A stretch of DNA of 64,000 bases from a virus. A program made the translations under genes and the position numbers. The stretch lies in IMG/VR virus record IMGVR_UViG_3300043409_001561. One strand, written 5' to 3'. The notes beneath the pieces are model-generated. The model worked only from the letters and a program-made list of their open reading frames with translations, was not told where the DNA came from and made no database searches. Shown here in pieces: positions 20,164 to 52,235 of the stretch (position 1 is its first letter; the number at the start of each line of letters is the position of its first letter).

Positions 20164-20586
20164 TTATAATTTTATTTCGAACCTATCTTTCATTATTTGA
20201 ATTTTGTCTTCAGGAACACCATGTTCATTTATACCTTCGTGCCTATTTTCTACAATAATTGAGAACACTTTATAATCATACTGTTTTGCCAACTCATAAT
20301 AACGTTCCATTTCCCATTCTTGTGTGAATGTATTGGAAACAGCAATCTCTCTGTAGAAGTTATCGTTAATCAGTGAATCCTTCATATATGTTTCAACTGT
20401 ATCCTGACAGAATTTATGTGCGTCTTTGATTTTAGTAAAATCAAAATTATATTCTCCAGTCTCTTTATCGACAAAATATTTGTCCGCCTCACAAACTAAA
20501 AAATCGTGTACCACTAATCTTTTGGCGAATGTAGATTTACCTGAACCAGGTACTCCTCTTACTATATATAAAATTTTATCATCCAT
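20164..20586 (-). CDS. P-loop kinase, polynucleotide kinase (T4 Pnk kinase-domain)-like
   Basis: The N-terminus ILYIVRGVPGSGKSTFAKRL parallels the T4 Pnk N-terminus IILTIGCPGSGKSTWA. Small 140-aa kinase-only ORF. Confidence 0.5.
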   Translation of the reverse strand: MDDKILYIVRGVPGSGKSTFAKRLVVHDFLVCEADKYFVDKETGEYNFDFTKIKDAHKFCQDTVETYMKDSLINDNFYREIAVSNTFTQEWEMERYYELAKQYDYKVFSIIVENRHEGINEHGVPEDKIQIMKDRFEIKL

Positions 20587-20989: not shown

Positions 20990-21094
20990 TTTATTTTGAT
21001 TTAGGTAGTTTTTATTAGGATACGGCTATTGCAATAATAGCAATAAAAGTAAACCATATGACAACTACGATTATTGTTACTAAATTTGGGGTTT

Positions 21095-21277
21095 TCATCT
21101 TTTATACATCAAATAAGTTACTACTAAAATAACGATTAAAAGTAATACTGGTATCCACAATGGTGCAGTTACCCACCACCAACTCCAATCAATGTGATTA
21201 GTTAGTTTTAGAACCATAAAAATAAGGAAGAGAATCATACCTAATCCTATCCCACTTGATGAACTTTTTTCACTCAT
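21095..21277 (-). CDS. small two-transmembrane-helix protein (holin-like topology)
   Basis: Two hydrophobic helices and a basic C-terminus. Function is not established. Confidence 0.35.
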   Translation of the reverse strand: MSEKSSSSGIGLGMILFLIFMVLKLTNHIDWSWWWVTAPLWIPVLLLIVILVVTYLMYKR

Positions 21278-21295
21278 AATTTATTATTTATTTAT

Positions 21296-21952
21296 TTATA
21301 TTCTTTTTTCGTGATGATCTTTTGGTAAACATAATTTTTTAATTGGTTGATTTTTAACAATGGTTAAAATTTCATCCAAAGATAAGGGACATAAATTATT
21401 ACCATCTACACCCACATCCAATGATTTACCGTCACCCAATCTTAAATTAGTTGGTAGGTGTACGTGACCATGTAAATGTATTGTACCATCATTCATACTA
21501 TCCCACGATGCAATTGGGTAGTGCATGCAGACAAAAGAGTATTTGTCCATCAACCCCTTACTCAAAATAGATGGTCTACGAACATCTAAAAACAAATAGT
21601 CGTGTGTTGAGGAAAAAATATCTTGTATATCTTCTTTGTTTTTACGAATGTGGTGATCGTGATTCCCATAAGTTAAATGAACATTCTTACAGATTATTCT
21701 ATTACGAAATTCTTCTATTTTCTCAAATCCACCAAAACTCCAATCACCCAAATGGATCAATACATCATCTTCACCAACAACCTCATTAATATTATTCACT
21801 AATGTGTCATTCATATGATTGAGTGAATTAAACTTACGTGTTAGATTTTCTGCACCAACCCAACCAGTTGTTGCAGAACAAATATTTGCGTGATTATAAT
21901 GTGTATCACTCGTAAAAAATAACCGTTGCCCTTTTTCTAATACTAATTTCAT
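21296..21952 (-). CDS. calcineurin-like metallophosphoesterase
   Basis: SDTHYNH, GDW, GNHDHH and GHVH motifs in canonical MPP order. Confidence 0.65.
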   Translation of the reverse strand: MKLVLEKGQRLFFTSDTHYNHANICSATTGWVGAENLTRKFNSLNHMNDTLVNNINEVVGEDDVLIHLGDWSFGGFEKIEEFRNRIICKNVHLTYGNHDHHIRKNKEDIQDIFSSTHDYLFLDVRRPSILSKGLMDKYSFVCMHYPIASWDSMNDGTIHLHGHVHLPTNLRLGDGKSLDVGVDGNNLCPLSLDEILTIVKNQPIKKLCLPKDHHEKRI

Positions 21953-21956
21953 TTTA

Positions 21957-21964
21957 CAAATATA
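21957..21964 (-). promoter_or_regulatory. TAnnTTTG (-7) promoter-type element immediately upstream of 21296..21952
   Basis: The minus strand reads TATATTTG. It lies only 4 nt from the ATG, so the transcript may be leaderless or the true start may differ. Confidence 0.3.
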
Positions 21965-22022
21965 TTTATAATTTTTTAATATTCCAAACTTTTAGGTAAA
22001 AATAATAGGGTTGGTGTCTTAA

Positions 22023-22658
22023 CTAGTTATGTTTACAATTTTCATTATGGTATCTATTAACGTGTATTATTGAGACTTCTAACCCACATACAGTACAAGA
22101 TATTTTTTGGTATGGTCCTCTCGGATTTTTATGTTTACCTTTTGGTTTTTTCATTTTTTCTTTACTTTCTTCAGTGTGTTTGTACCCTTTAATTTTATTA
22201 ATAACATCCTGTGATCTCTTAGTCCCTAATAATTTTTTTCTTATCTTTTCTTTTGTTTCTTCACTTCTTGGTACACCAATACTATGTTTTGTTCTTTTTT
22301 CAATTAACTCTTTTGATTGCTTTATCCCCGTATGTGACACACTTGATTTAAGTTTAGTTTCATCGGAGGCAGCACCACTTTTATCTGTAGTTTTTGTTAA
22401 AACCAAATTTAAACCGTTATTCAATACATCATAATGTTCTTGCCAAAATCTTTCTCTATTGTTTAATTCACAAATTAAACATTCTTCAATTATTTCAAAA
22501 TTATGTTTTTCAACGCCATGACTAATTAATGATGAATATAATTTACATTGTTGTTTACATTTTAATTTTTTATAACTTTCAAATCTTCTTAAAATATCAA
22601 TTGATTGCCCTATATAGACTTTACCTGAAGGTGACGTTATTTTATATATTCCAACCAC
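22023..22658 (-). CDS. GIY-YIG homing endonuclease with a C-terminal zinc finger (free-standing, mobile)
   Basis: GIYKITSPSGKVYIGQS...RF..Y motif. Lys-rich NUMOD-like repeats. C-terminal CTVCG...HVNRYHNENC. Confidence 0.75.
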   Translation of the reverse strand: MVGIYKITSPSGKVYIGQSIDILRRFESYKKLKCKQQCKLYSSLISHGVEKHNFEIIEECLICELNNRERFWQEHYDVLNNGLNLVLTKTTDKSGAASDETKLKSSVSHTGIKQSKELIEKRTKHSIGVPRSEETKEKIRKKLLGTKRSQDVINKIKGYKHTEESKEKMKKPKGKHKNPRGPYQKISCTVCGLEVSIIHVNRYHNENCKHN

Positions 22659-22698
22659 AAAAATTATACTTTATAATAAATATAATTTTTTTTAATTT

Positions 22699-23343
22699 TT
22701 AACTTAAACTATCTGGTAAAAATAGGAGGGTCGGGTTACGTTTTTGTATATCCAAATTAGGGTATTTTTTTTTAAACTCCATATAATCAAATCTATCCGT
22801 AATTAAGTGATAACCATTTTTTGTTGGTATAATCGAATTTATCTTATCTTGAATCGGTCGACATTTAGTATTAATAAATGTTGCAACTTCTTCAACAAAA
22901 CTCTTATCTTTCGTGTCTATGTCCGCCACCCACCTCTTCTCGTGAGTTTTAATTTGACCAACAACTGAGTCAAATAAACCTTGTTGTTTATCTACACCAT
23001 CTCTAATACGTTCTGCCAGTATCGCCAACATATTAAGGGAAACATCCTTATGGTTTTGTTTCTGAACATGAATATATGCCCTCGCCTTAAACATTTCACA
23101 AAGTTGTTTAATCTCGTCATACCTCTTTTCAAGATGATCAATAGATTCTATACAGTAAGTTTTAATTGTTCTTACTGACTGATGATTATCTCTTTCCCCT
23201 TCAGGTTGATCCTTTTTACGTTTAAAAACATATAACATATAAAAATCACCTTTATCAGTGAAATGTAATAGTGTTTTTATTAATTCTATGTTATCTATCA
23301 TTATTTGTAAATTTATGTATTTTTTATTACTAAATTTAACCAA
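22699..23343 (-). CDS. hypothetical protein
   Basis: ORF track; 214 aa. Confidence 0.4.
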   Translation of the reverse strand: MVKFSNKKYINLQIMIDNIELIKTLLHFTDKGDFYMLYVFKRKKDQPEGERDNHQSVRTIKTYCIESIDHLEKRYDEIKQLCEMFKARAYIHVQKQNHKDVSLNMLAILAERIRDGVDKQQGLFDSVVGQIKTHEKRWVADIDTKDKSFVEEVATFINTKCRPIQDKINSIIPTKNGYHLITDRFDYMEFKKKYPNLDIQKRNPTLLFLPDSLS

Positions 23344-23639
23344 TCTCCAATATCTTCCATTAATTCAACCTCCCATTGTTCAATTATTTTATCCAAAATT
23401 CCTAACCCATAAGATGTTGCAACCCCATATCCTTTTTTATTACACTTATAACAACTACCACTAAATCCAATAAAATAATAGTAATCATCATCTTGTTCAA
23501 CCTTTTCTATTCCAGAGTTCAACTTCCATCTATCACTAGTTAAATATCCACCAGCCCAAGTTCCAAAAACTTTATAGTAATTGTTTGGTAGTTTTAATAC
23601 TACCCATCTTTCTGGATTTTCACTTATATTTCTTTTCAT
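23313..23639 (-). CDS. hypothetical protein
   Basis: ORF track. Confidence 0.35.
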   Translation of the reverse strand: MKRNISENPERWVVLKLPNNYYKVFGTWAGGYLTSDRWKLNSGIEKVEQDDDYYYFIGFSGSCYKCNKKGYGVATSYGLGILDKIIEQWEVELMEDIGDWLNLVIKNT

Positions 23640-24280
23640 AATTTCCTAAATTTTGGTTTTAAGGCACTCCATATAATTTTATCATAATCTTTACCATCCC
23701 ACATCGCAAACATAATTGCCTTAACGATAGAATGTTTATCTTTTATGAATTCTGCAAACTCTTTCTTAGTCGGTTCAGGATCTTTATCCCCATATTTACC
23801 AAATCTAAAATAATCGTAAGTTTTACCTAGTTGATTATAATATTGGTACCAGTGATACCCCAAACTACTGGCGTAAGTTTTAATCTTATCATAAAATTCA
23901 TCAGGAACATCTTTAAGAAAATCTTCTATTTTACCTCCACTAGATAAAATTTCCCATACAGTTGTAGTTGATATGTTTGTCATTATTTTATGTAATCTGA
24001 GATATTCTTCACCCTTTATCTTCATTCTGTCACCATTAGAAAATTTAACTACATAACCCTCTTCATTATCTTTTATTGTATTTTTTAAGGTAGTGAAATC
24101 AGTTATACCATCATATTTTTTAACTACTCTGAATCCTATATTTTGAATTAAATTTTTTAATCTTAAATCTACATCTTCACTATGTAAGTCAACTTCATTT
24201 TCGGTTTTAGTATTTATCATACCTAATAACACTAAATCCTCAAAATCATACTGTACTACTATTCTGTTTTTACCCCCCAT
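23636..24280 (-). CDS. RNA ligase C-terminal fragment (nucleotidyltransferase motifs IV and V)
   Basis: EGYVVKF (motif IV EGxVxK) and MKIKGEEY (motif V). Lies directly downstream of a GIY-YIG gene and the N-terminal fragment. Confidence 0.5.
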   Translation of the reverse strand: MGGKNRIVVQYDFEDLVLLGMINTKTENEVDLHSEDVDLRLKNLIQNIGFRVVKKYDGITDFTTLKNTIKDNEEGYVVKFSNGDRMKIKGEEYLRLHKIMTNISTTTVWEILSSGGKIEDFLKDVPDEFYDKIKTYASSLGYHWYQYYNQLGKTYDYFRFGKYGDKDPEPTKKEFAEFIKDKHSIVKAIMFAMWDGKDYDKIIWSALKPKFRKL

Positions 24281-24283
24281 AAT

Positions 24284-25096
24284 TTATTTATTTTTACAAT
24301 TATCAAAATGCCATCTATTCATAATACCAACACCACCTTCTTTATCACAATATGGACAAATTATTTTTTTACTACTTATTCCCTTAAATGGGCTACGTTT
24401 CCCTTTTTTTGATTCACTGATTTTTCTTTTAGTCTCTTCACTTTTGTTTTTACCAGGATTATTCATCGTCCATTTTTTTCTTTTAATCTCACGTGTTTCT
24501 TCACTTTGATTTTTTCCATAGTCATTACCTTTTAATTTCAAACTCAATTTTTTTTTGTGTTCTTCACTATGATAATGTTTTCCACTCTTACTATCACTAA
24601 TTTTTTTTCCTATAATTTTTGCCTTATCTTCACCAAATCTTTCTTCAAATGTTTTCCCTTTATGTAACTTTGATAAATGTTCTCCTATTGCTTTATGTCT
24701 TTTTACCCCCTTCTTTGATTCAGATATTTTTTTATTTCTATTTTTCTTATCTTCCTCACTCATATCTTCCCATCTTTTTTTTTGAGATTTTGACATTTTA
24801 TGTAAGACATTTTTAGTGAAAATTATCTCACTCCCTCTTGCGGCATTATAGTATTTTTCATCACGTATATCAATTTCTTTTAAAATCCCCTGTTCGTATT
24901 TTAAACAATCATTTTTAGAACCAAAAAATAAAATCTCACGATCCCAATTATTTTTTATATCATAAAAATCATCCCAAAATTCTTTATTATGGGAAGAAGA
25001 TACGTATCCATCATTTATATCACCTTTATGATAACCAATGTAAATTTTACCATTATTTAAATTTACCCATTTATAAACAAAAGCCTCTTTATCCAT
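24284..25096 (-). CDS. GIY-YIG homing endonuclease (inserted between the RNA ligase fragments)
   Basis: GKIYIGYHKG...GYVSSS motif. Lys-rich repeats. C-terminal CPYCDKEGGVGIMNRWHFDNC zinc finger. Confidence 0.75.
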   Translation of the reverse strand: MDKEAFVYKWVNLNNGKIYIGYHKGDINDGYVSSSHNKEFWDDFYDIKNNWDREILFFGSKNDCLKYEQGILKEIDIRDEKYYNAARGSEIIFTKNVLHKMSKSQKKRWEDMSEEDKKNRNKKISESKKGVKRHKAIGEHLSKLHKGKTFEERFGEDKAKIIGKKISDSKSGKHYHSEEHKKKLSLKLKGNDYGKNQSEETREIKRKKWTMNNPGKNKSEETKRKISESKKGKRSPFKGISSKKIICPYCDKEGGVGIMNRWHFDNCKNK

Positions 25097-25160
25097 AATT
25101 AATCATTTATATATAAATATAATGGTTATAATTAAAAACAATACTATTTTACCAATAAAC

Positions 25161-25580
25161 CTAATATATTATTTCAAATAAATAAGTATAATCTTTATGT
25201 AACTTATCGTAATCATATTTTTGTAATAAATCAAAACCCTTTATGGATTGTTCGGAAGTGAATGAACCTCTAGTCGCCAATACCCATTCATCCTTATAAT
25301 GAAATAGAATTCCTAATGAACCATCCATTTTATCATAAACGTCAAATTCAGATGTGGTAGTATGTTTACCTTCTTCCATATTAAAGAATTTTTTAAATGG
25401 TCTACCTATAATATCCCCATTAGAATTTGTTACCAAACCCCTACACATAAGTGTTACCTCATCCCATAAACCTTCATATTGAACCTTTTCAGAATAATTC
25501 CAAATAGTTAAGTCCAAAGTAGGGTGTACTTGTTTATACAATAAACCCTTATCAAAATATTCATTTAATATTTCATTCAT
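25161..25580 (-). CDS. RNA ligase N-terminal fragment (adenylyltransferase motif I)
   Basis: YDKMDGSLG matches ligase motif I (KxDGS), as in T4 Rnl1 KEDGSL. Confidence 0.55.
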   Translation of the reverse strand: MNEILNEYFDKGLLYKQVHPTLDLTIWNYSEKVQYEGLWDEVTLMCRGLVTNSNGDIIGRPFKKFFNMEEGKHTTTSEFDVYDKMDGSLGILFHYKDEWVLATRGSFTSEQSIKGFDLLQKYDYDKLHKDYTYLFEIIY

Positions 25581-25607
25581 AACGCAAATATAATATTTTT
25601 TATCTTC

Positions 25608-25871
25608 CTAATCTCTATCATTTAGTTCTGTGATTACTTTTATTCTTTGTGTAGGAACTTTTATCCATGATTTATCACATGATTTGATAGTACTAATACC
25701 ACTATCACTACTACTTACTTCAGTGCAATCCATTTCCGTTCCATCAGTGAAAACAACGTGTTGATCACATTTTTTACTATCTTCGATTATTAGATATAAA
25801 ATTATACCATATATTAGTGAAGTTACTAAAATAATAGTTAATACTTGTAAACTTTTCATTTTAATATACAT
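25608..25871 (-). CDS. small secreted/membrane protein
   Basis: N-terminal hydrophobic segment. Confidence 0.35.
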   Translation of the reverse strand: MYIKMKSLQVLTIILVTSLIYGIILYLIIEDSKKCDQHVVFTDGTEMDCTEVSSSDSGISTIKSCDKSWIKVPTQRIKVITELNDRD

Positions 25872-25880
25872 TTATTTGTG

Positions 25881-27482
25881 TTAAAGTGGTAAGGTAGTAA
25901 AATCTATTTTATTATTTTTATCTCTACTAAAGATGATATGTTGTGCCCTACCATCATTATGGATGATAACATGTGTCTGTAACCAACCACTAGGACCATT
26001 ATTATACCCAACTCTTAGTTTTGTACTCGTACCTACTGCCAATGCCCCATCTTTACGTCCTGGTGAGTGATAATGTCCTACAACAATTTTAGTATTCAAT
26101 TTACGAAATTGTTGTAAAGAACCTCTACTACCATTAGATCCAACGTCACCATGTTGCCCTAGTTCCCAATTCTTCACTTTGTAAGAATCATTTCTACCTA
26201 ATGTAATAAATTTAGGGTATCTCTCATTGATGATGTCAGGTATTACACCTTTAACGTCACTAGGATTTTCACCGTATTGTTTTAAAAGTCTGGAACTTAA
26301 ATCCATATACAATGGTGCGTTTTTAAATGTAGGTTGTTTTTTCCAATCCTCATTTTTTAACCATCTATCTACAAAGTCATCATGATTTGATCTAACTATA
26401 ACCACATTTTCAAAATCACTAAATCTATCTAGTTGATCCATCATAGTGAATATTTCTTTACCTAAATCATTAGTCCCATTCATTTCTTTACCATATTGTA
26501 CAAATGGATCTTTCATCTGGTGGTGACTTATAGAGTCTCCATCAAATACATCATGTAGAATAACATGTTTAGGGACTAAATCTACCATTAAATCAAATGT
26601 AGATTCTAATACATCTTCATCGTGATGTCCGTAGTGAAGGTCACCTAAAATTATCGCAGATACGGATGAATTTTTATTAACGACACCTTTCTCTACTCTA
26701 TTATATAAGTCTGAAAAATTACCACTCTTATCATCGGCAGTTACTTGTCTAACAAAAAACGTATCTTCATCTTTAATTTCCACAATAACAAAACCAAAAG
26801 TATGATGGAATTCACCTTTCTTACCTGATTTAGAATCAGTGTAATTCTTTTTAGTTATTGATCCTGTCGTTAACATCATCTTAGGTTTTTGTTTAACTAA
26901 AACAGGTATTGTCTCCATATGTACCTTTGGTGAACCAAAAATACAAGAATTAATTCCACTCAAACCTTGTAATCCTGTCATAGGATCGACTGCGGTTGGT
27001 TGTATTTTAACATCTGATAGAATAGAAACATATTTATGTATGTCATGTCTATTAGCATCTAAGTACTTAACTATCTTACTATCCCAAAATTCGTTATTTT
27101 CTTGATTACTAGTCCATACAGATGTCGGATTTTTATATCTACCCGCAATAACATGTATATCTGCTCCCAAATGATTTGCGTAAGCCTCCATATTGGTGAG
27201 TAATCCGTTATGGACAGGTGTATTATTTTGTGCCCAAGTAATTAAAAATATCTTTTTATCTTTATCATACTTTTTTAATTTGGCAGCCTCAAATTGTTCC
27301 GACTCTTTATCTACTTTCTCTTTGAAATTAAATTTCTCCGAACACCATTTTCTTATAGTCCTTTCCGATCTATCGAAATACTCAATTAGAATTGACATTC
27401 TCTCATCCCACTTTAAGTTTTTGTCAGTGTAGATGGAATAAGCATGTTCTATGTCTTTTTCTGTTACATCTTTAAATTTCAT
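25881..27482 (-). CDS. large metallophosphoesterase-domain protein
   Basis: GDLHYGHHD, SNHDDF and GHYHSPG motifs (calcineurin-like). The N-terminal roughly 250 aa is of unknown function. Confidence 0.55.
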   Translation of the reverse strand: MKFKDVTEKDIEHAYSIYTDKNLKWDERMSILIEYFDRSERTIRKWCSEKFNFKEKVDKESEQFEAAKLKKYDKDKKIFLITWAQNNTPVHNGLLTNMEAYANHLGADIHVIAGRYKNPTSVWTSNQENNEFWDSKIVKYLDANRHDIHKYVSILSDVKIQPTAVDPMTGLQGLSGINSCIFGSPKVHMETIPVLVKQKPKMMLTTGSITKKNYTDSKSGKKGEFHHTFGFVIVEIKDEDTFFVRQVTADDKSGNFSDLYNRVEKGVVNKNSSVSAIILGDLHYGHHDEDVLESTFDLMVDLVPKHVILHDVFDGDSISHHQMKDPFVQYGKEMNGTNDLGKEIFTMMDQLDRFSDFENVVIVRSNHDDFVDRWLKNEDWKKQPTFKNAPLYMDLSSRLLKQYGENPSDVKGVIPDIINERYPKFITLGRNDSYKVKNWELGQHGDVGSNGSRGSLQQFRKLNTKIVVGHYHSPGRKDGALAVGTSTKLRVGYNNGPSGWLQTHVIIHNDGRAQHIIFSRDKNNKIDFTTLPL

Positions 27483-27529
27483 AATGTTTTTTTTTAAATT
27501 TAATGATAATTTTTATTAAAATCAATAGT

Positions 27530-28267
27530 TTATAATTCGTTAGTAGGTTTCAACCACATTCCTTTTGAGAATACTAAATCCAAAAATCCAGGTATGTAAG
27601 ATTCTTCAACGGTATGAAGTAATCTTAAAGATAGTGGAGTATTATGTTTCATCATCTTAAAGATTTCTTCTCTCATTCTTTCAACTGAAACAGTTGTTTT
27701 TAATTTCTCTAAGATTTCAGGTTGAGCCATCGCGTCCCATATTTTTAAACTAATCGTAAATCCTTTTGTTACTGAGAATCTTAAAGCTCTCAATATTCTC
27801 AACGGATCATCCATCATTGTTATTTCTGGGTTTAATGGAGTTCTCAAAATTCCATCTTCAAGATCCTTGAGTCCACCAAATAAATCAATTAGATTCCCAT
27901 TTTCATCTTCCGCCATCGAATTCAATGTGAAATCTCTTCTAATTAGATCATCTTCTAATGTACCTAATTCTAAAATAGGTTGTCTAGTCCCTTCTTTGTA
28001 ACCGATCTCTTTTCTTGCGAGAACAAAGTCCGCAACTAATCCTTCGTTAACATCACCTTTAGGAAATTTAGCTCTGATAGTGAACATCTCTGGAGTAGAA
28101 AGGAATATAGTAAACTCTTTATGTTCCATCCATTGTTTCATTATTTCGAAACCTTCATCTACTGTTCTATCTATGTTGTCGAGTACAAATGTGAAGTCAA
28201 TATCTTTAGATTCAACACCTAAGATACTATCTCTTACACAACCACCAACTTTATATATCTGAGGCAT
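27530..28267 (-). CDS. cca: CCA-adding tRNA nucleotidyltransferase (minimal head/neck type)
   Basis: VGGCVRDSILG...KDIDF, RRDFTLNSMA and DPLRILRALRF are the class-II CCA/poly(A) polymerase head-domain motifs. Confidence 0.75.
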   Translation of the reverse strand: MPQIYKVGGCVRDSILGVESKDIDFTFVLDNIDRTVDEGFEIMKQWMEHKEFTIFLSTPEMFTIRAKFPKGDVNEGLVADFVLARKEIGYKEGTRQPILELGTLEDDLIRRDFTLNSMAEDENGNLIDLFGGLKDLEDGILRTPLNPEITMMDDPLRILRALRFSVTKGFTISLKIWDAMAQPEILEKLKTTVSVERMREEIFKMMKHNTPLSLRLLHTVEESYIPGFLDLVFSKGMWLKPTNEL

Positions 28268-28506: not shown

Positions 28507-28750
28507 TTGTTTTATTTTATCAAAGATATAAATAATATTTCAATCTGCCAAATTTTTTGGTTATTTATATTGGTTATAAATAAGGTGATAGTGATGGAGT
28601 ACCCGTCTCGCTCCAATCTTAAGTGCTTAATCGTAGTTTTACGAGGCCTCGGCACTGTCCTTTTCAGGGGGTGATGAATTCCTGATCCACTCTGGATTGT
28701 CGACATCCGTTGAGTGGGGAAAACCACTATCAGTATTTTAATTGTTTATG

Positions 28751-28824
28751 TGGTCCTTGTTGGAATCGAACCAACCACCTACGGTTTATGAGACCGCCGC
28801 TCTAACCGAATGAGCTAAAGGACC
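28751..28824 (-). tRNA. tRNA-Met/Ile2 (anticodon CAT)
   Basis: Manual fold: acceptor GGTCCTT/AAGGACC, D-arm GCTC..GAGC, anticodon loop CTCATAA, T-loop TTCGATT. Confidence 0.7.
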
Positions 28825-44304: not shown

Positions 44305-44370
44305 AATAAACGTTTTATAACATCAAATATAGATATTAATTTCTATATAAACAAATTTTTTTAAAAATAG

Positions 44371-44445
44371 TACCAAAGGTGAGATTCGAACTCACAAACC
44401 TTTGTTTCTAAGACAAAGAGGTATACCGATTCCCGTCACTTTGGC
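44371..44445 (-). tRNA. tRNA (anticodon TAG; Leu-like but with a short variable arm)
   Basis: Acceptor GCCAAAG/CTTTGGT, anticodon stem TTTGT/ACAAA with loop CTTAGAA, T-loop TTCGAAT. The D-arm is irregular. Confidence 0.5.
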
Positions 44446-44451
44446 ATTTTG

Positions 44452-44524
44452 AGCAGGTAGAGAGAATCGAACTCTCGTCCTCTGATTGGAAGTCAGACAT
44501 AATAAGCCACTATACGATACCTGC
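44452..44524 (-). tRNA. tRNA-Gly (anticodon TCC)
   Basis: Acceptor GCAGGTA/TACCTGC, anticodon stem TCTGA/TCAGA with loop CTTCCAA, T-loop TTCGATT. Confidence 0.65.
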
Positions 44525-44695
44525 ATTAAGATTATTTTCTCTTAATCTTTTTTTTTAATTTAATAAATTTTATTAATCTTATTAAATTAATAGAATTTTT
44601 TCTAGACTCGATAATATTAAAATTATCTTTCGATGATATACCAGAACCCGTCATTACCTCTCTCATACTTATTTATTTTACTTTTTATTATTTGT

Positions 44696-44768
44696 GGATA
44701 CATCTCGGCATCGAACCGAGGACTCCTGAGTGCAAATCAGGTGTGATAGCCAGCTTCACCAATGACCC
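44696..44768 (-). tRNA. tRNA-Ala-like (anticodon TGC)
   Basis: D-arm GTGA/TCAC, anticodon stem CCTGA/TCAGG with loop TTTGCAC, T-loop TTCGATG. The acceptor has two mismatches and lacks G3-U70. Confidence 0.5.
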
Positions 44769-44774
44769 AAATGG

Positions 44775-44849
44775 TTGCGGGACTGGGACTCGAACCCAGA
44801 ACTTCGGCTTATGAGACCGACGAGATAACCAATTTCTACATATCCCGCA
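44775..44849 (-). tRNA. tRNA-Met (anticodon CAT), initiator-like; CCA appears genomically encoded
   Basis: Anticodon arm TCGGT-CTCATAA-GCCGA resembles tRNA-fMet. The 3' end reads TCCCGCA-A-CCA. Confidence 0.65.
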
Positions 44850-44881
44850 ATTTTTAATTATACCGAATTCGGTATAATTAG

Positions 44882-44956
44882 TGATCCCGGTGAGGTTCGA
44901 ACTCACGACCCCTCCATTAAAAGTGGAGTGCTCTAAACCAACTGAGCTACGAGATC
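44882..44956 (-). tRNA. tRNA-Lys (anticodon TTT)
   Basis: Clean cloverleaf: D-arm GCTC-AGTTGGTTA-GAGC, anticodon loop CTTTTAA. Confidence 0.8.
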
Positions 44957-45017
44957 TTCTGTTTGTCATACTTGTCACTTTCCATAATCTGACATTTTAT
45001 TTATTTGTTAATAATTG

Positions 45018-45090
45018 AGGTTCTGCCCAGGTTCGAACTGGAGACACTTGATTACAAATCAAGAGTTTTACCGACTAAACTACAAAACCT
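45018..45090 (-). tRNA. tRNA-Thr (anticodon TGT)
   Basis: Anticodon stem CTTGA/TCAAG with loop TTTGTAA, T-loop TTCGAAC. Confidence 0.75.
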
Positions 45091-45095
45091 AATTG

Positions 45096-45169
45096 TATCG
45101 TGTACGGGATTCGAACCCGTGATTTTCACCTTGAAAGGGTGACGACTTAAACCACTCGTCTAACACGAC
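45096..45169 (-). tRNA. tRNA-Glu (anticodon TTC), second copy
   Basis: Anticodon stem TCACC/GGTGA with loop CTTTCAA, T-loop TTCGAAT. Confidence 0.7.
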
Positions 45170-45177
45170 ATTTATTG

Positions 45178-45250
45178 TAGTCTCTGTAGGGTTCGAACCT
45201 ACGACAACTTGCATGTAAAACAAGTGCTCTACCAACTGAGCTAAGAGACT
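45178..45250 (-). tRNA. tRNA-Val (anticodon TAC)
   Basis: Acceptor AGTCTCT/AGAGACT, D-arm GCTC-AGTTGGTA-GAGC, anticodon loop TTTACAT. Confidence 0.8.
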
Positions 45251-45255
45251 GTGGC

Positions 45256-45327
45256 GGTCCATGACGGTTACGATCCGTCTACTCTACCGTGACAGGGTAG
45301 GATGATAAGCCATTTCACCAATAGACC
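45256..45327 (-). tRNA. tRNA-Asp (anticodon GTC), second copy with an unusual T-loop ATCGTAA
   Basis: Acceptor GGTCTAT/ATGGACC, anticodon stem CTACC/GGTAG with loop CTGTCAC. Confidence 0.7.
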
Positions 45328-45334
45328 ATTTAAA

Positions 45335-45440
45335 TGATAATCAGGATTGAGTTGTATACGTGCTCTACCAACTGAGCTACCGTCGCCCCGAAGGACAACG
45401 GACAGGATTCGAACCTGCGACACCGAGCTTAAAAGGCTAA
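45335..45440 (-). other. rearranged tRNA-derived element (T-arm-like segment placed 5' of an acceptor/D-arm half)
   Basis: The minus strand reads ...GCAGGTTCGAATCCTGTCC...GGCGACGGTAGCTCAGTTGGTAGAGC... followed by no T-arm. The order is permuted relative to a normal tRNA. Confidence 0.3.
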
Positions 45441-45480
45441 TGTAATTGTTGCTGAAACAATCCTTTTATTATCATTATAG

Positions 45481-45564
45481 AGGAGAGATGAGGTGTCGAT
45501 CCCCATACCTTTCAGTACCAACTGTTTTCAAGACAGTGTTGCGGGCCGCCGCAATTATCTCTCC
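45481..45564 (-). tRNA. tRNA-Ser (anticodon TGA), type II with an atypical D-arm
   Basis: Acceptor GGAGAGA/TCTCTCC, anticodon stem ACTGT/ACAGT with loop CTTGAAA, long variable region, T-loop ATCGACA. Confidence 0.55.
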
Positions 45565-45602
45565 GTTTAATTTCCAATACGTCAAAGAACTAAAAACAAA
45601 AA

Positions 45603-45632
45603 ACCCTAAGTTCTCACTTAGGGTTTCCATTA
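45603..45632 (-). terminator. rho-independent terminator-like hairpin (CCCTAAGTGAGAACTTAGGG followed by T6 on the minus strand)
   Basis: Perfect 7-bp stem plus T-run between the two tRNA sub-clusters. Confidence 0.45.
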
Positions 45633-45855
45633 TATAGTATTTAAATTTTTAAATGTTATCTATTACAATATACCCTAAGATCTGGTTGTAGCGAATCCGC
45701 TCCATCCATTTTCGTCTTAACGACCTCTAATCTGTATGTCATTGTATTTTTCATTGAAATTTTTACCTTTTTAATTAAATATACATAAAGTTACGAAAGT
45801 TTCTTCAAAAAGTCAAATAATTTTTAATTTTTTTTTATAATTTATTTTATTTAAG

Positions 45856-45929
45856 AGGTCAGAGAGGGATTCGAACCCCCGAATAATGGATTTGCAGTCC
45901 ACCCCTTTAAACCACTCAGGCATCTGACC
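45856..45929 (-). tRNA. tRNA-Cys (anticodon GCA)
   Basis: Acceptor GGTCAGA/TCTGACC, anticodon stem GTGGA/TCCAT with loop CTGCAAA, T-loop TTCGAAT. Confidence 0.7.
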
Positions 45930-45998
45930 ATCAGTTCACTAAACTAGATTTTGCACAATAAACTTTATCTGTTTATTGTAGCAAAAATAAGTTTATTG

Positions 45999-46071
45999 TA
46001 CACTCTGAGAGATTCGAACTCCCATCTTATAGTCCGTAGCCATATGTTCTAATCCGTTGAACTAAGAGTGT
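45999..46071 (-). tRNA. tRNA-Arg (anticodon ACG)
   Basis: Acceptor ACACTCT/AGAGTGT, D-arm GTTC/GAAC, anticodon loop CTACGGA. Confidence 0.75.
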
Positions 46072-46076
46072 ATTGG

Positions 46077-46148
46077 TAGGGATGGGTGGAGTCGAACCAC
46101 CGAGACAACTGTATAAGAGTTGCATGTTCACCGTTACATCACATCCCC
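46077..46148 (-). tRNA. tRNA-Ile (anticodon TAT), followed by an encoded CCA
   Basis: Acceptor GGGGATG/CATCCCT, D-arm ATGT/ACAT, anticodon stem CAACT/AGTTG with loop CTTATAC. Confidence 0.65.
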
Positions 46149-46155
46149 ATTTTTG

Positions 46156-46243
46156 CGGAAAGAATAGGATTCGAACCTATGGTACCCTTACGAGTACAAC
46201 ACCTTAGCAGGGTGCCTCAATAAACCAACTCTGACATCTTTCC
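46156..46243 (-). tRNA. tRNA-Ser (anticodon GCT), type II
   Basis: Acceptor GGAAAGA/TCTTTCC, anticodon stem GCACC/GGTGT with loop CTGCTAA, long variable arm, T-loop TTCGAAT. Confidence 0.7.
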
Positions 46244-46247
46244 ATTA

Positions 46248-46321
46248 GGTGTATGACGGGAATTGAACCCGTGACCTTTTGATTCACAATCAAACACTCT
46301 AACCAACTGAGCTACATACAC
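46248..46321 (-). tRNA. tRNA-His (anticodon GTG)
   Basis: Acceptor GTGTATG/CATACAC, anticodon stem TTTGA/TCAAA with loop TTGTGAA, T-loop TTCAATT. Confidence 0.8.
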
Positions 46322-46323
46322 AG

Positions 46324-46394
46324 TTGTCTCCCAAGGATTCGAACCTCGATTCAGTGGTCCAAAACCACTTGTCCTGCCTTTAGACGAGGAGACA
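46324..46394 (-). tRNA. tRNA-Gln (anticodon TTG)
   Basis: U1-A72 acceptor TGTCTCC/GGAGACA, anticodon stem AGTGG/CCACT with loop TTTTGGA. Confidence 0.8.
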
Positions 46395-46457
46395 ATTTAA
46401 AATTATTCACTACCCAAATATCGAATTTTTTACTACTTTTGGGAAGTTAATAATTAG

Positions 46458-46532
46458 TCTGGGTAGCGAGACTCGAACTCACATTATGTCCACATCCCAA
46501 ATGTGGCGGCTTACCAATTAGCCAATACCCAG
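46458..46532 (-). tRNA. tRNA-Pro (anticodon TGG)
   Basis: C1-G72 acceptor CTGGGTA/TACCCAG, anticodon stem CCACA/TGTGG with loop TTTGGGA. Confidence 0.8.
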
Positions 46533-46535
46533 TTA

Positions 46536-46653
46536 AAAGTGTGGTGAGATTTGAACTCACACGAAAGGTTACATATCTAATCCCCTTCTTTTCTCTACAA
46601 ACTAGTATAAGTAGTTTCAGAACATTAAATCATCACCTAACCCTTTCACACTT
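46536..46653 (-). other. tRNA-like element with an insertion of about 45 nt closed by an AAAGGGTTA/TAACCTTT stem
   Basis: Acceptor AAGTGTG/CACACTT and T-arm GTGAG-TTCAAAT-CTCAC. The central region is replaced by a long structured insert that shares its closing-stem sequence with 30934..31059. Confidence 0.4.
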
Positions 46654-46654
46654 G

Positions 46655-46727
46655 TGGACAGAGAGGGAATCGAACCCCCGACACCTAGATCTTCAATCTA
46701 GTGCTCTACCAACTGAGCTACCTGTCC
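46655..46727 (-). tRNA. tRNA-Phe (anticodon GAA)
   Basis: Acceptor GGACAGG/TCTGTCC, anticodon stem CTAGA/TCTAG with loop TTGAAGA, T-loop TTCGATT. Confidence 0.8.
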
Positions 46728-46795
46728 TTCTTCGGGGAGGACTTGGCTGAGGTATCCTAACGGTTCTACCCTCAACACTCGCCTCCCGTCTTATG

Positions 46796-46866
46796 CACAC
46801 CTGAAAGGATTCGAACCTCTAACAACGGTTTTGGAAACCGTCATGATACCATTTCACTACAGATGT
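46796..46866 (-). tRNA. tRNA-Trp (anticodon CCA)
   Basis: Acceptor ACATCTG/CAGGTGT (one G-U pair), anticodon stem ACGGT/ACCGT with loop TTCCAAA. Confidence 0.75.
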
Positions 46867-46942
46867 ATTAAAATGTTCAGGAAGACTTTTTTACATCCAA
46901 ATTGTATTTTTTTATTTGCTGAAATCTTCCTTTTAACATTTG

Positions 46943-47023
46943 TGGGACCTGGTGGACTCGAACCACTCCCTTTAGGACGAAATTTACAGTTTCGCTGCCG
47001 TATCCAAACGACTTTCAGTTCCC
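46943..47023 (-). tRNA. tRNA-Tyr (anticodon GTA), long variable region
   Basis: Anticodon stem CGAAA/TTTCG with loop CTGTAAA, T-loop TTCGAGT. The acceptor has one mismatch. Confidence 0.6.
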
Positions 47024-47091
47024 ATTTAAACTAACACCATGACTCCTTTCGAACTTTAGAGGCTCGTATCATTCAACTCTGTGTTAGTTTG

Positions 47092-47164
47092 CGACTCAGG
47101 CAGGACTCGAACCTGCGACCGATTGATTAACAGTCAATTGCTCTACCAACTGAGCTACTGAGTC
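47092..47164 (-). tRNA. tRNA-Asn (anticodon GTT)
   Basis: Acceptor GACTCAG/CTGAGTC, D-arm GCTC/GAGC, anticodon stem ATTGA/TCAAT with loop CTGTTAA. Confidence 0.8.
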
Positions 47165-47203
47165 ATTTACTTTCATAACAATATGTCAAAGAACTTTTGT
47201 TCT

Positions 47204-47280
47204 GTCGGTATGGTAGGGATCGAACCTACGAATCTTCTCGATATCAGCGAGATGCCTTAAACCAACTTGGCCACATACCG
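47204..47280 (-). tRNA. tRNA-Ile (anticodon GAT)
   Basis: Acceptor CGGTATG/CATACCG, anticodon stem TCTCG/CGAGA with loop CTGATAT, T-loop TTCGATC. Confidence 0.75.
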
Positions 47281-51723: not shown

Positions 51724-51847
51724 ATTATTACTATAAAAAATAAAACCCCCCTAATTATCTTAAGGGGGTTTTTAAAGGGCCGATAGGATCACTATCAACT
51801 TCCACCACTTTGTTTTTAAGGTACAAAGAACCTAGCGTGGAGATGGA

Positions 51848-52235
51848 GGGAGTCGAACCCTCGTCCAATCAAATTGCCATTAAAAATTCATTCACAAGCT
51901 TAGTTCATTTTTCTTAATGAACAAAATATTTGGTTTTATTTATAACATGGTTACCAACAACCCTGTTTCGATAATTGTTTAGAGAGTTTTACCGTCAACT
52001 CTATTTTTTACACCTTTCTGTTTCTAGGTAAGTGTGACCCACCGATTAAACTAATTCCATTAATTCAATCTCTTCAACCACCGCTGAGCGAGTGATAGAA
52101 GTTGGGATACTCATCATATCCTCTGTGTTGTATGCGTTTGCATTTATATTTTGATAGGTGTTTAAGGGTTTCCATCTAACCCTGCTTGCATCATTTCAAA
52201 CTCAACCTTTGACTGTCAAATCCAAAACCATCCCC
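51848..52235 (-). ncRNA. ssrA: candidate tmRNA (ssrA)
   Basis: The minus strand begins GGGGATGGTTTTGGATTTGACAG (compare E. coli GGGGCTGATTCTGGATTCGACGG). It ends GGACGAGGGTTCGACTCCCTCCATCTCCA, a tRNA-like T-arm plus acceptor whose 3' CATCTCC pairs with the 5' GGAGATG. The tag reading frame is not confidently identified. Confidence 0.55.

Follow-up and report, generated by a model that had tools for sequence, protein, structure and literature searches.

The 64,000-nt viral record IMGVR_UViG_3300043409_001561 (hereafter the window) carries an RNA ligase gene in two pieces with a homing endonuclease gene between them, and this locus was compared here with related loci and contigs, which are designated by L numbers. 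The open reading frame (ORF) list and its translation gave three consecutive ORFs in the order rnl1-N, endonuclease, rnl1-C, all on the minus strand and all placed as an earlier note on this DNA had placed them. The first, rnl1-N (25161..25580, 139 aa), is an N-terminal Rnl1 fragment with the motifs CRG, KFFN, KMDGS, TRGS and FEIIY; its protein ends ...KDYTYLFEIIY, and a TAG follows directly. An A/T-rich spacer of 64 nt (25097..25160, minus strand), part of the cassette defined below, separates this stop from the start of the endonuclease gene (24284..25096; 813 nt, 270 aa), which encodes a putative Seg-like GIY-YIG protein with NUMOD3 repeats and a C-terminal zinc finger. Only 3 nt (ATT) lie between the TAA stop of the endonuclease gene and the start of rnl1-C (23636..24280, 214 aa). 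This last ORF opens with ATG-GGG-GGT-AAA (MGGK), continues with NRIVVQYDFEDL... and contains NRIVV, motif IV (EGYVVK), motif V (KIKGEEY) and a predicted C-terminal helical domain; its stop overlaps the ATG of the next ORF.

Together the split ORFs hold every residue of the ligase except a two-codon linker. Motif I (KMDGS, with the lysine nucleophile) and motif III (FEIIY) are encoded in rnl1-N and motifs IV and V in rnl1-C; with a stop after FEIIY and a separate ORF from MGGK, the motifs of the Rnl1 ligase are not on one polypeptide. On its own, rnl1-N matched the Pfam family PF09511 RNA_lig_T4_1 (44.1 bits, cut-off 28.3) over profile positions 2-94 of 227, and rnl1-C on its own gave no Pfam match. 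Against PHROG 562 (annotated 'RNA ligase and tail fiber attachment catalyst'), the family of T4 gp63/Rnl1, rnl1-N covered profile positions 21-165 of 377 (expectation value E = 5e-34) and rnl1-C positions 167-366 (E = 6e-29). The halves are therefore exactly complementary, without overlap or gap, and the proposal of the earlier note, that a free-standing GIY-YIG endonuclease gene with a zinc finger bisects an RNA ligase gene into two collinear fragments of one family, was borne out by these profiles and by the intact relatives described below.

When the halves were concatenated, the Pfam RNA_lig_T4_1 match extended over positions 2-226 of 227 (65.1 bits), and the joined sequence aligned with the T4 Rnl1 structures 2c5u, 5tt6 and 9do4 (E ~2e-11) and matched intact RNA ligases of Streptomyces, Arthrobacter and Tenacibaculum phages as one full-length segment. 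Where the earlier note had left the family as Rnl1 or Rnl2, the first of these stood: judged by its matches, the ligase is of the Rnl1 type and not Rnl2. In the alignment with T4 Rnl1, CRG, KKFFN, KMDGS, TRGS and FEIIY of the window stood opposite CRG, EKFFN, KEDGS, SKGS and FEFV, and EGYVV and KIKGEEY stood opposite EGYVA and KIKSDWY. Among these aligned motifs are the residues reported as essential in T4 Rnl1 from mutational work of the Shuman laboratory (R54, K75, F77, K99, G102, E159, E227, G228, K240 and K242); the T4-essential positions aligned with the window ligase are the Arg of CRG, KFF, KxDGS, FE, EGY and KxK. For the intact homolog P0003 (88% identical), the AlphaFold2 (AF2) prediction reached a mean predicted local distance difference test score (pLDDT) of 74.8 and a predicted template modelling score (pTM) of 0.53, with low confidence near the active site. 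In a Foldseek search its best PDB matches were again the T4 Rnl1 entries 2c5u, 5tt6 and 9do4 (E ~1e-11), but with a template modelling (TM) score of 0.42.

The protein encoded between the two halves carries the catalytic signature FVY-x10-YIG, with Glu68 and Asn84 invariant in 6 homologs. It scored 16.7 bits against the Pfam GIY-YIG family, which is below the cut-off of 22.6, and 32.7 bits in two stretches against NUMOD3 (cut-off 20.4), and it matched PHROG 314 ('homing endonuclease') at E = 4e-20. The C-terminal finger CPYC...RWHFDNC (CxxC...HxxxC) was invariant in the homologs, for which dN/dS (the ratio of nonsynonymous to synonymous divergence) was ~0.2. The N-terminal domain shares ~35% identity with proteins annotated as homing endonucleases in T4-like phages. 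No close homolog was found in deposited phage genomes, the best matches there being 35% identical over the N-terminal half or 29.5% at full length. The closest homologs (62-67% identical) all occupy the same ligase site.

IMG/VR was scanned with each ligase fragment. This returned 154 loci, 152 of them containing both parts, and in 148 of these 152 the two parts were contiguous in one ORF. Relatives without the endonuclease insertion, to which the earlier note had looked, were thus found, L002/L083 and L081/L084 being among them. All intact alleles read [F/V/L/Y]E-I-I-[Y/F], two variable residues and then N-R-I-V, and the nearest ones (L002/L083, L081 and L001; 92-94% aa identity) read ...YLFEIIY-DD-NRIVVQYDFEDLV..., the DNA of the intact allele around the insertion point being …TTTGAAATCATATACGATGATAATCGAATAGTGGTA…. 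Ligase motifs I, III, IV and V were invariant across 34 intact homologs, and rnl1-C was 92-94% identical to residues 141-351 of intact homologs. With junctions set by comparison with L002/L083, L001, L005, L007 and L012, a cassette of 895 nt (24269..25163, minus strand) stands in place of the linker codons GATGAT (DD). It consists of TAG, the 64-nt spacer, the endonuclease gene, TAA-ATT and ATG-GGG-GGT-AAA. The MGG[KQ] leader is cassette-borne, since intact genes never have GG[KQ] at the junction. The spacer is conserved among cassettes in a three-way DNA alignment with L129 and L026. As a candidate for a promoter motif repeated along the phage, it matched the window 2 times where 0.81 matches were expected, a difference without significance; a sigma-70 scan remained at background level, with a model that is not applicable to Bacteroidota-type promoters.

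A contiguous ligase might still be restored from this arrangement if the endonuclease gene lay in a self-splicing group I intron or between the halves of a split intein, given that phage GIY-YIG endonucleases are often intron-encoded (I-TevI) and that a free-standing endonuclease is also known to separate the halves of split-intein 'fractured genes' (PMC2677866). We regard this as very improbable. No intron or other RNA family was found in a search for Rfam families at E ≤ 1 on both strands of 21000..28000, and non-coding sequence amounts to only 64 nt on the 5' side and 3 nt on the 3' side of the endonuclease ORF, which is too little for a ribozyme core. The spacer folds less stably than its shuffles (z = +1.38), so that no regulatory hairpin is proposed for it. 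The endonuclease is read in a different frame from rnl1-N and is bounded by stops, and in all split alleles the stop right after FEIIY and the ATG or GTG start are conserved while the identity of the stop codon varies. The two halves meet at the adjacent profile positions 165 and 167 and therefore contain no intein-sized extra sequence. The absence of an intron or intein signal, which the earlier note had reported by eye, thus held in these searches.

The locus is metagenome-derived and shows mosaic identity patterns, as would a chimeric contig in which a ligase had been joined to an unrelated endonuclease. We give such an assembly or sequencing artefact a negligible probability, because the arrangement is found in independent assemblies. 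The Logan contig L236 is an independent assembly and is 100% identical to window positions 28096..21284 (6.8 kb); the same three-gene order is present on ENA/Logan contigs from other samples (L235, L237 and L238), and the same arrangement is found on ~20 IMG/VR and Joint Genome Institute (JGI) contigs. An identical endonuclease protein is encoded by five public contigs.

The history of the insertion was visible in two comparisons. L081/L084 match the window at 98.5% identity for 3.8 kb on the upstream side, as far as the break itself, and at ~98% again further downstream, past a second endonuclease gene of the window (described below); they lack both endonuclease genes. Mismatches against L081 rose from ~0.9% upstream of the ligase to ~8% inside rnl1-N and were also raised in the first ~180 nt of rnl1-C, as would be expected if a homing element had taken its flanks along in the exchange. 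The second comparison was with L235, an ENA scaffold of 157 kb that carries the split allele in another gene neighborhood (NAPRTase and deoxyribosyltransferase upstream) and lacks the second endonuclease gene. Here there were no mismatches in the 877 nt of spacer and endonuclease gene (64 and 813 nt), against 34/420 in rnl1-N and 37/645 in rnl1-C (6-8%). The 100% identical tract is 987 nt long (24258..25244, minus strand; no mismatch between 25245 and 24257), and consists of the cassette, 81 nt of rnl1-N coding sequence upstream of the TAG and 11 nt of rnl1-C after ATG-GGG-GGT-AAA. The L235 N fragment in turn differed from the intact alleles L083 and L001 at only 3 of 417 positions, and therefore L083 and L235 form a near-perfect before/after pair; two of the three differences from L083 lie within 7 nt of the junction.

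In the ligase tree, the nearest relatives of each split allele were intact alleles, and the split alleles were polyphyletic. For every pair of split alleles the synonymous divergence (dS) of the endonuclease was lower than that of the ligase halves, as in L155 and L160, where it was 0.01 for the endonuclease, 0.93 for the N fragment and 0.48 for the C fragment. A difference of this kind marks an active homing element that passes from one diverged allele to another. By these patterns of divergence the cassette is mobile, and its insertion in the lineage of the window is very recent. One candidate hallmark of the cassette was discarded: the flank DYGDYEGLVLLGAF had been considered as always cassette-linked ('always split'), and the same sequence occurs in intact alleles.

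The same break point has been occupied repeatedly. Eleven close IMG/VR homologs of the endonuclease (L155-L165, 62-65% identical) were all found at this ligase site, as were the endonucleases of L129, L024/L026 and six JGI metagenome loci. When metagenomes were scanned with the endonuclease profile, most matches were distant GIY-YIG genes in other settings, and only 6 further loci were associated with a ligase. Across 24 split loci, representing about a dozen distinct alleles, every half that was not cut by a contig end was a complete ORF, and the complete halves keep KxDGS, EG[FY][VI]x and K[IVM]Kxx(x)Y. The protein database added three proteins that consist of the C piece only, 215-217 aa long with MGG[KQ]NRIVV at the start. 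In the split alleles the N piece always ends ...E-I-I-Y-stop, with TAG, TAA or TGA at the same position, and all of them begin the C piece with ATG (GTG in L157-159), GGN, GGN and [A/C]AA, followed by NRIVV.

This start was kept even where the gene between the halves was of another kind. In L244 and L245 another GIY-YIG catalytic domain is fused to the same NUMOD3/zinc-finger C-terminal region, and the GG[KQ] start is retained, an apparent case of catalytic-domain swapping on a conserved DNA-binding module. These two proteins (L244 2998..3903 and L245 2674..3402) have ~50% identity to the window enzyme over its residues 139-270, and their different N-terminal domain is a canonical GIY-YIG (MAYIYKH...FYIGIG). 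In L035 the site holds an unrelated endonuclease of 322 aa (DUF7487; PHROG 3339 'homing endonuclease'), the 3' end of which overlaps the MGGK start. In L299 the endonuclease is reduced to a 29-aa zinc-finger remnant, and the ligase halves are still separate and intact. Between the endonuclease and the C fragment, L155, L160 and L165 contain one to four small ORFs, and MGGQ stays on the C fragment. The small ORFs (L155 2048..2260, L160 3317..3553 and L165 3317..4110) encode 57-78 aa, several ending ...YYNQTYNQ[NK]K, and are repeated up to three times in L165. They had no PHROG match; they could be passengers, or form a small mobile unit themselves. Elsewhere in a split gene, the N fragment of L026 (4507..5115) has an extra insertion of ~45 aa (…ESGLLTDEERYNIWFDNNYETGMERFFDPNNLPDFENPYYKPTPKTKGE…) between motif I and TRGS/SRGS, with the frame kept.

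The alternative held open by the earlier note was a recent, inactivating insertion. In that case an accessory ligase would have been knocked out, the two ORFs would be young pseudogene fragments that have not yet decayed, and homing would outrun selection. The recent part of that alternative stood, given the 0/877 mismatches of the cassette against L235 and the 3 nt between the L235 N fragment and intact alleles. The inactivating part is, in our view, unlikely, although several observations speak for it. The break falls within the catalytic core just after motif III, no sizeable interaction tails are present, and only ~5% of related unique alleles are split, as expected if carriers were short-lived. 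What speaks against it is that the complete halves in all 24 split loci are intact with their catalytic motifs kept, that the insertion brings its own stop and start, that the cassette-borne start is conserved across three endonuclease types and extra-ORF insertions, and that the halves of L299 remain intact with only a remnant of the endonuclease. Endonuclease lineages at the ligase site have moreover diverged to dS ~1, which implies long persistence.

Selection on split halves could be assessed in one pair. L160 (identical to L161-163 and L240) and L241 are collinear and 97.3% identical over 5.8 kb, and both are split with the same extra ORF. Their dS was 0.077 for the N fragment, 0.042 for the endonuclease and 0.071 for the C fragment, and such similar divergence in all three is expected for descent from a split ancestor. 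In the ligase halves of this pair, 13 changed codons were synonymous and 7 nonsynonymous, where the neutral expectation was 81.5% nonsynonymous (binomial P = 6e-6). By this excess of synonymous change, both halves are under purifying selection in these split alleles, which diverged vertically, and this argues against a knock-out. Pairwise dN/dS among divergent split alleles was saturated, and because the endonuclease moves horizontally such pairs cannot isolate selection in the split state; only L160/L241 was therefore used.

Taken with the intact halves, the conserved cassette-borne start, the persistence of the split after decay of the endonuclease and the dS ~1 between endonuclease lineages, the selection seen in L160/L241 leads us to favor a two-piece enzyme. 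We consider it likely that the window encodes a functional two-piece tRNA-repair ligase created by a recent homing event, and in this sense we infer the 'two-subunit ligase' that the earlier note had suggested from the gene order. Some points weigh against a working enzyme. The insertion in the window is too young for the intactness of its own halves to count as evidence. The break interrupts the nucleotidyltransferase core just where the motif III strand ends (residues 131-138 of the intact homolog as modelled by AF2), and the model, being weak at residues 139-151, locates it no more closely than 'after the motif III strand'. Interaction tails derived from the cassette are essentially absent, there being none on the N fragment and 4 aa on the C fragment. 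The selection test comprises one lineage pair with 20 changed codons and assumes that the common ancestor was already split, and frequent homing that renews split alleles from intact ones could mimic persistence. A break in a clear surface loop was also considered, and is unsupported because the P0003 model (pLDDT 74.8) is too weak around residues 139-151.

A mechanism for the two-piece ligase can be proposed as follows. The cassette would have homed to the point where the motif III strand (FEIIY) gives way to the strand that follows it (NRIVV), taking the place of the two codons of the linker. The endonuclease would recognize the conserved DNA that encodes FEIIY-xx-NRIVV in intact alleles, a site that the insertion destroys, and would cut intact alleles during co-infection, and the repair would then copy the complete cassette plus short flanks. 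The three ORFs presumably share one transcript, since no terminator-like sites were found between them on the coding strand. Their starts lack Shine-Dalgarno sequences and have A/U-rich, unstructured leaders, consistent with a Bacteroidota host, and the C fragment may be translated by re-initiation 3 nt past the endonuclease stop. The two polypeptides would then assemble non-covalently into a composite active site, to which the N fragment would contribute the adenylylated lysine and motif III, and the C fragment motifs IV and V and the C-terminal helical domain. The phage would so keep a working tRNA-repair ligase, acting with the neighboring kinase-like and phosphoesterase genes, and the cassette, by bringing its own stop and start, would largely neutralize the cost of its insertion.

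Our proposal can be taken one step further, and we lean slightly towards doing so. The stop, endonuclease and start may form a 'self-compensating' cassette that turns Rnl1 into an obligate two-subunit enzyme at every site it enters, its core rebuilt from essentially tail-less halves that are separated right after motif III, with the break point serving as a long-lived niche that is traded among endonucleases and with the split outlasting them. The occupants meant here are two GIY-YIG catalytic types that share one DNA-binding module, and the unrelated DUF7487-type endonuclease. If this is true, the locus would provide an RNA ligase that is split in nature, and a compact system in which the endonuclease life cycle can be studied.

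To our knowledge, there are only a few well-studied cases in which host genes are split but not destroyed by free-standing homing endonucleases. The closest known system to the split ligase is the 'genes-in-pieces' ribonucleotide reductase nrdA-a/mobE/nrdA-b of the Aeromonas phage Aeh1 (Friedrich et al., 2007, PNAS, as cited in PMC3322345). Both loci have a free-standing endonuclease gene in a conserved catalytic region of a phage enzyme gene, two ORFs with an insertion-derived stop and start, and no RNA or protein splicing, and the active site is divided between two polypeptides in Aeh1 NrdA as it would be, judging from the genes, in the window ligase. They differ in target (Rnl1 rather than ribonucleotide reductase) and in endonuclease (a putative Seg-like GIY-YIG enzyme rather than the HNH enzyme MobE). 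The insertion-derived tails of Aeh1 NrdA are essential for assembly (Crona et al., 2011; PMC3045599), whereas the N fragment of the window ends at FEIIY without a tail and the C fragment gains only MGGK. The ligase also differs in having a natural series, known from sequence, of intact/split pairs, three endonuclease types, a decayed endonuclease and added ORFs.

In T4, the topoisomerase genes 39 and 60 are separated by mobA, and gene 43, encoding DNA polymerase, is split in some T4-like phages (reviewed in PMC2988022). As at the window locus, a useful or essential gene is kept as two cistrons after invasion by an endonuclease, and in these systems the subunits assemble post-translationally. 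The enzymes differ, and T4 gene 60 also uses translational bypassing, to which nothing comparable was seen in the window. The split-intein 'fractured genes' of environmental phage-like DNA (Dassa et al., 2009; PMC2677866) share with the window the order host-N, endonuclease, host-C; the fragments of the window contain no intein sequence and therefore, unlike those genes, could not be joined by trans-splicing. I-TevI, from the group I intron of T4 td, resembles the window endonuclease, as far as its GIY-YIG domain is predicted, in combining such a domain with modular DNA-binding units (NUMOD3, zinc finger), in a target that for the window enzyme would likewise be a conserved catalytic-site sequence, and in co-conversion of flanks. 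The window endonuclease, by contrast, is free-standing, without a ribozyme, and its host gene is not restored by splicing.

T4 Rnl1 (gp63, RnlA) and Pnkp form a pathway for the repair of tRNA anticodon breaks. The window ligase belongs to the same family as T4 Rnl1 (PF09511 and PHROG 562, with 2c5u, 5tt6 and 9do4 as best PDB matches), and its setting resembles that of T4 repair in having kinase-like and phosphoesterase genes nearby and many phage tRNAs. It differs in being only ~20% identical to the T4 enzyme and in two pieces, and in that end-healing, if present, would be on separate small proteins.

No split or interrupted RNA ligase with a homing endonuclease was found reported in the literature searched or in deposited phage genomes. 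The Rnl1 tRNA-repair ligase is a new target enzyme for gene splitting by endonucleases; the split as such is well supported, and its kind is not conceptually new. What sets the locus apart is an unusually complete natural series of before/after pairs, identical cassettes in diverged alleles, endonuclease replacement, domain swapping, passenger ORFs and a decayed endonuclease. If the halves do assemble, helper tails would not be needed for a covalent-nucleotidyltransferase core to survive fission beside motif III, fragment-complementation tools could be built on a naturally split RNA ligase, and there would be grounds for annotators to stop calling such fragments pseudogenes.

The genes around the ligase were examined for possible partners. 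A P-loop protein of the AAA_33 or polynucleotide-kinase-like type is encoded at 20164..20586 (minus strand; Pfam AAA_33, E = 8e-10; PHROG 505, polynucleotide kinase); its sequence also fits the N-terminal part of phrog_8238, an 'RNA ligase' (kinase-ligase fusion) profile of 737 positions. It is the candidate for healing 5' ends alongside the ligase; for 3' ends the candidate is a phosphatase, the calcineurin-like metallophosphoesterase encoded at 21296..21952 (minus strand; Pfam Metallophos, 23.8 bits; PHROG 547, E = 3e-42). On the other side of the ligase, a tRNA nucleotidyltransferase of the CCA-adding enzyme family (27530..28267, minus strand; PolyA_pol, E = 1e-20; PHROG 24229, E = 2.5e-60) adjoins one of two tRNA arrays (28750..30467 and 44370..47280), both on the same strand as the ligase. 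The window contains 27 tRNA genes in total, with 20 amino-acid specificities. The tRNA arrays, the CCA-adding enzyme, the kinase-like protein and the phosphoesterase make up a large tRNA supply and repair region, and by gene content this neighborhood fits a role of the ligase in tRNA repair.

The phage itself has no close cultured relative, a megablast search of the locus against deposited phages having given no match. A homolog of the T5 A1-like 'DNA transfer protein'/metallophosphoesterase is encoded at 25881..27482 (minus strand; PHROG 1745, E = 6e-151), and its best cultured relatives are in Maribacter, Cellulophaga and Flavobacterium phages (~46% identity), on which basis the phage was assigned to a Flavobacteriia host. 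It is probably large, the contigs of its relatives being 157-254 kb.

The second free-standing endonuclease gene of the window (22023..22658, minus strand, 211 aa, GTG start) also encodes a GIY-YIG/NUMOD3/zinc-finger protein. It is intergenic, lying between the ORF 22699..23343 (function unassigned, PHROG 14949) and the metallophosphoesterase gene, and is absent from L081, L083 and L235. Divergence from L081 was raised in 22700..23000, on the upstream side of this gene only, and from one endonuclease gene to the other the identity to L081 is 90%, compared with ~98% outside this stretch.

Two further RNA features were noted. A transfer-messenger RNA (tmRNA) gene at 51835..52235 (minus strand) matched Rfam RF00023 over its full length (112 bits), with an unusually long tag peptide predicted by ARAGORN as ANAYNTEDMMSIPTSITRSAVVEEIELMELV. 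At 30934..31059 (minus strand), a 126-nt Rfam tRNA match of 39 bits spans the full model and was not called by ARAGORN; this may be a tRNA gene with an insertion or intron of ~50 nt.

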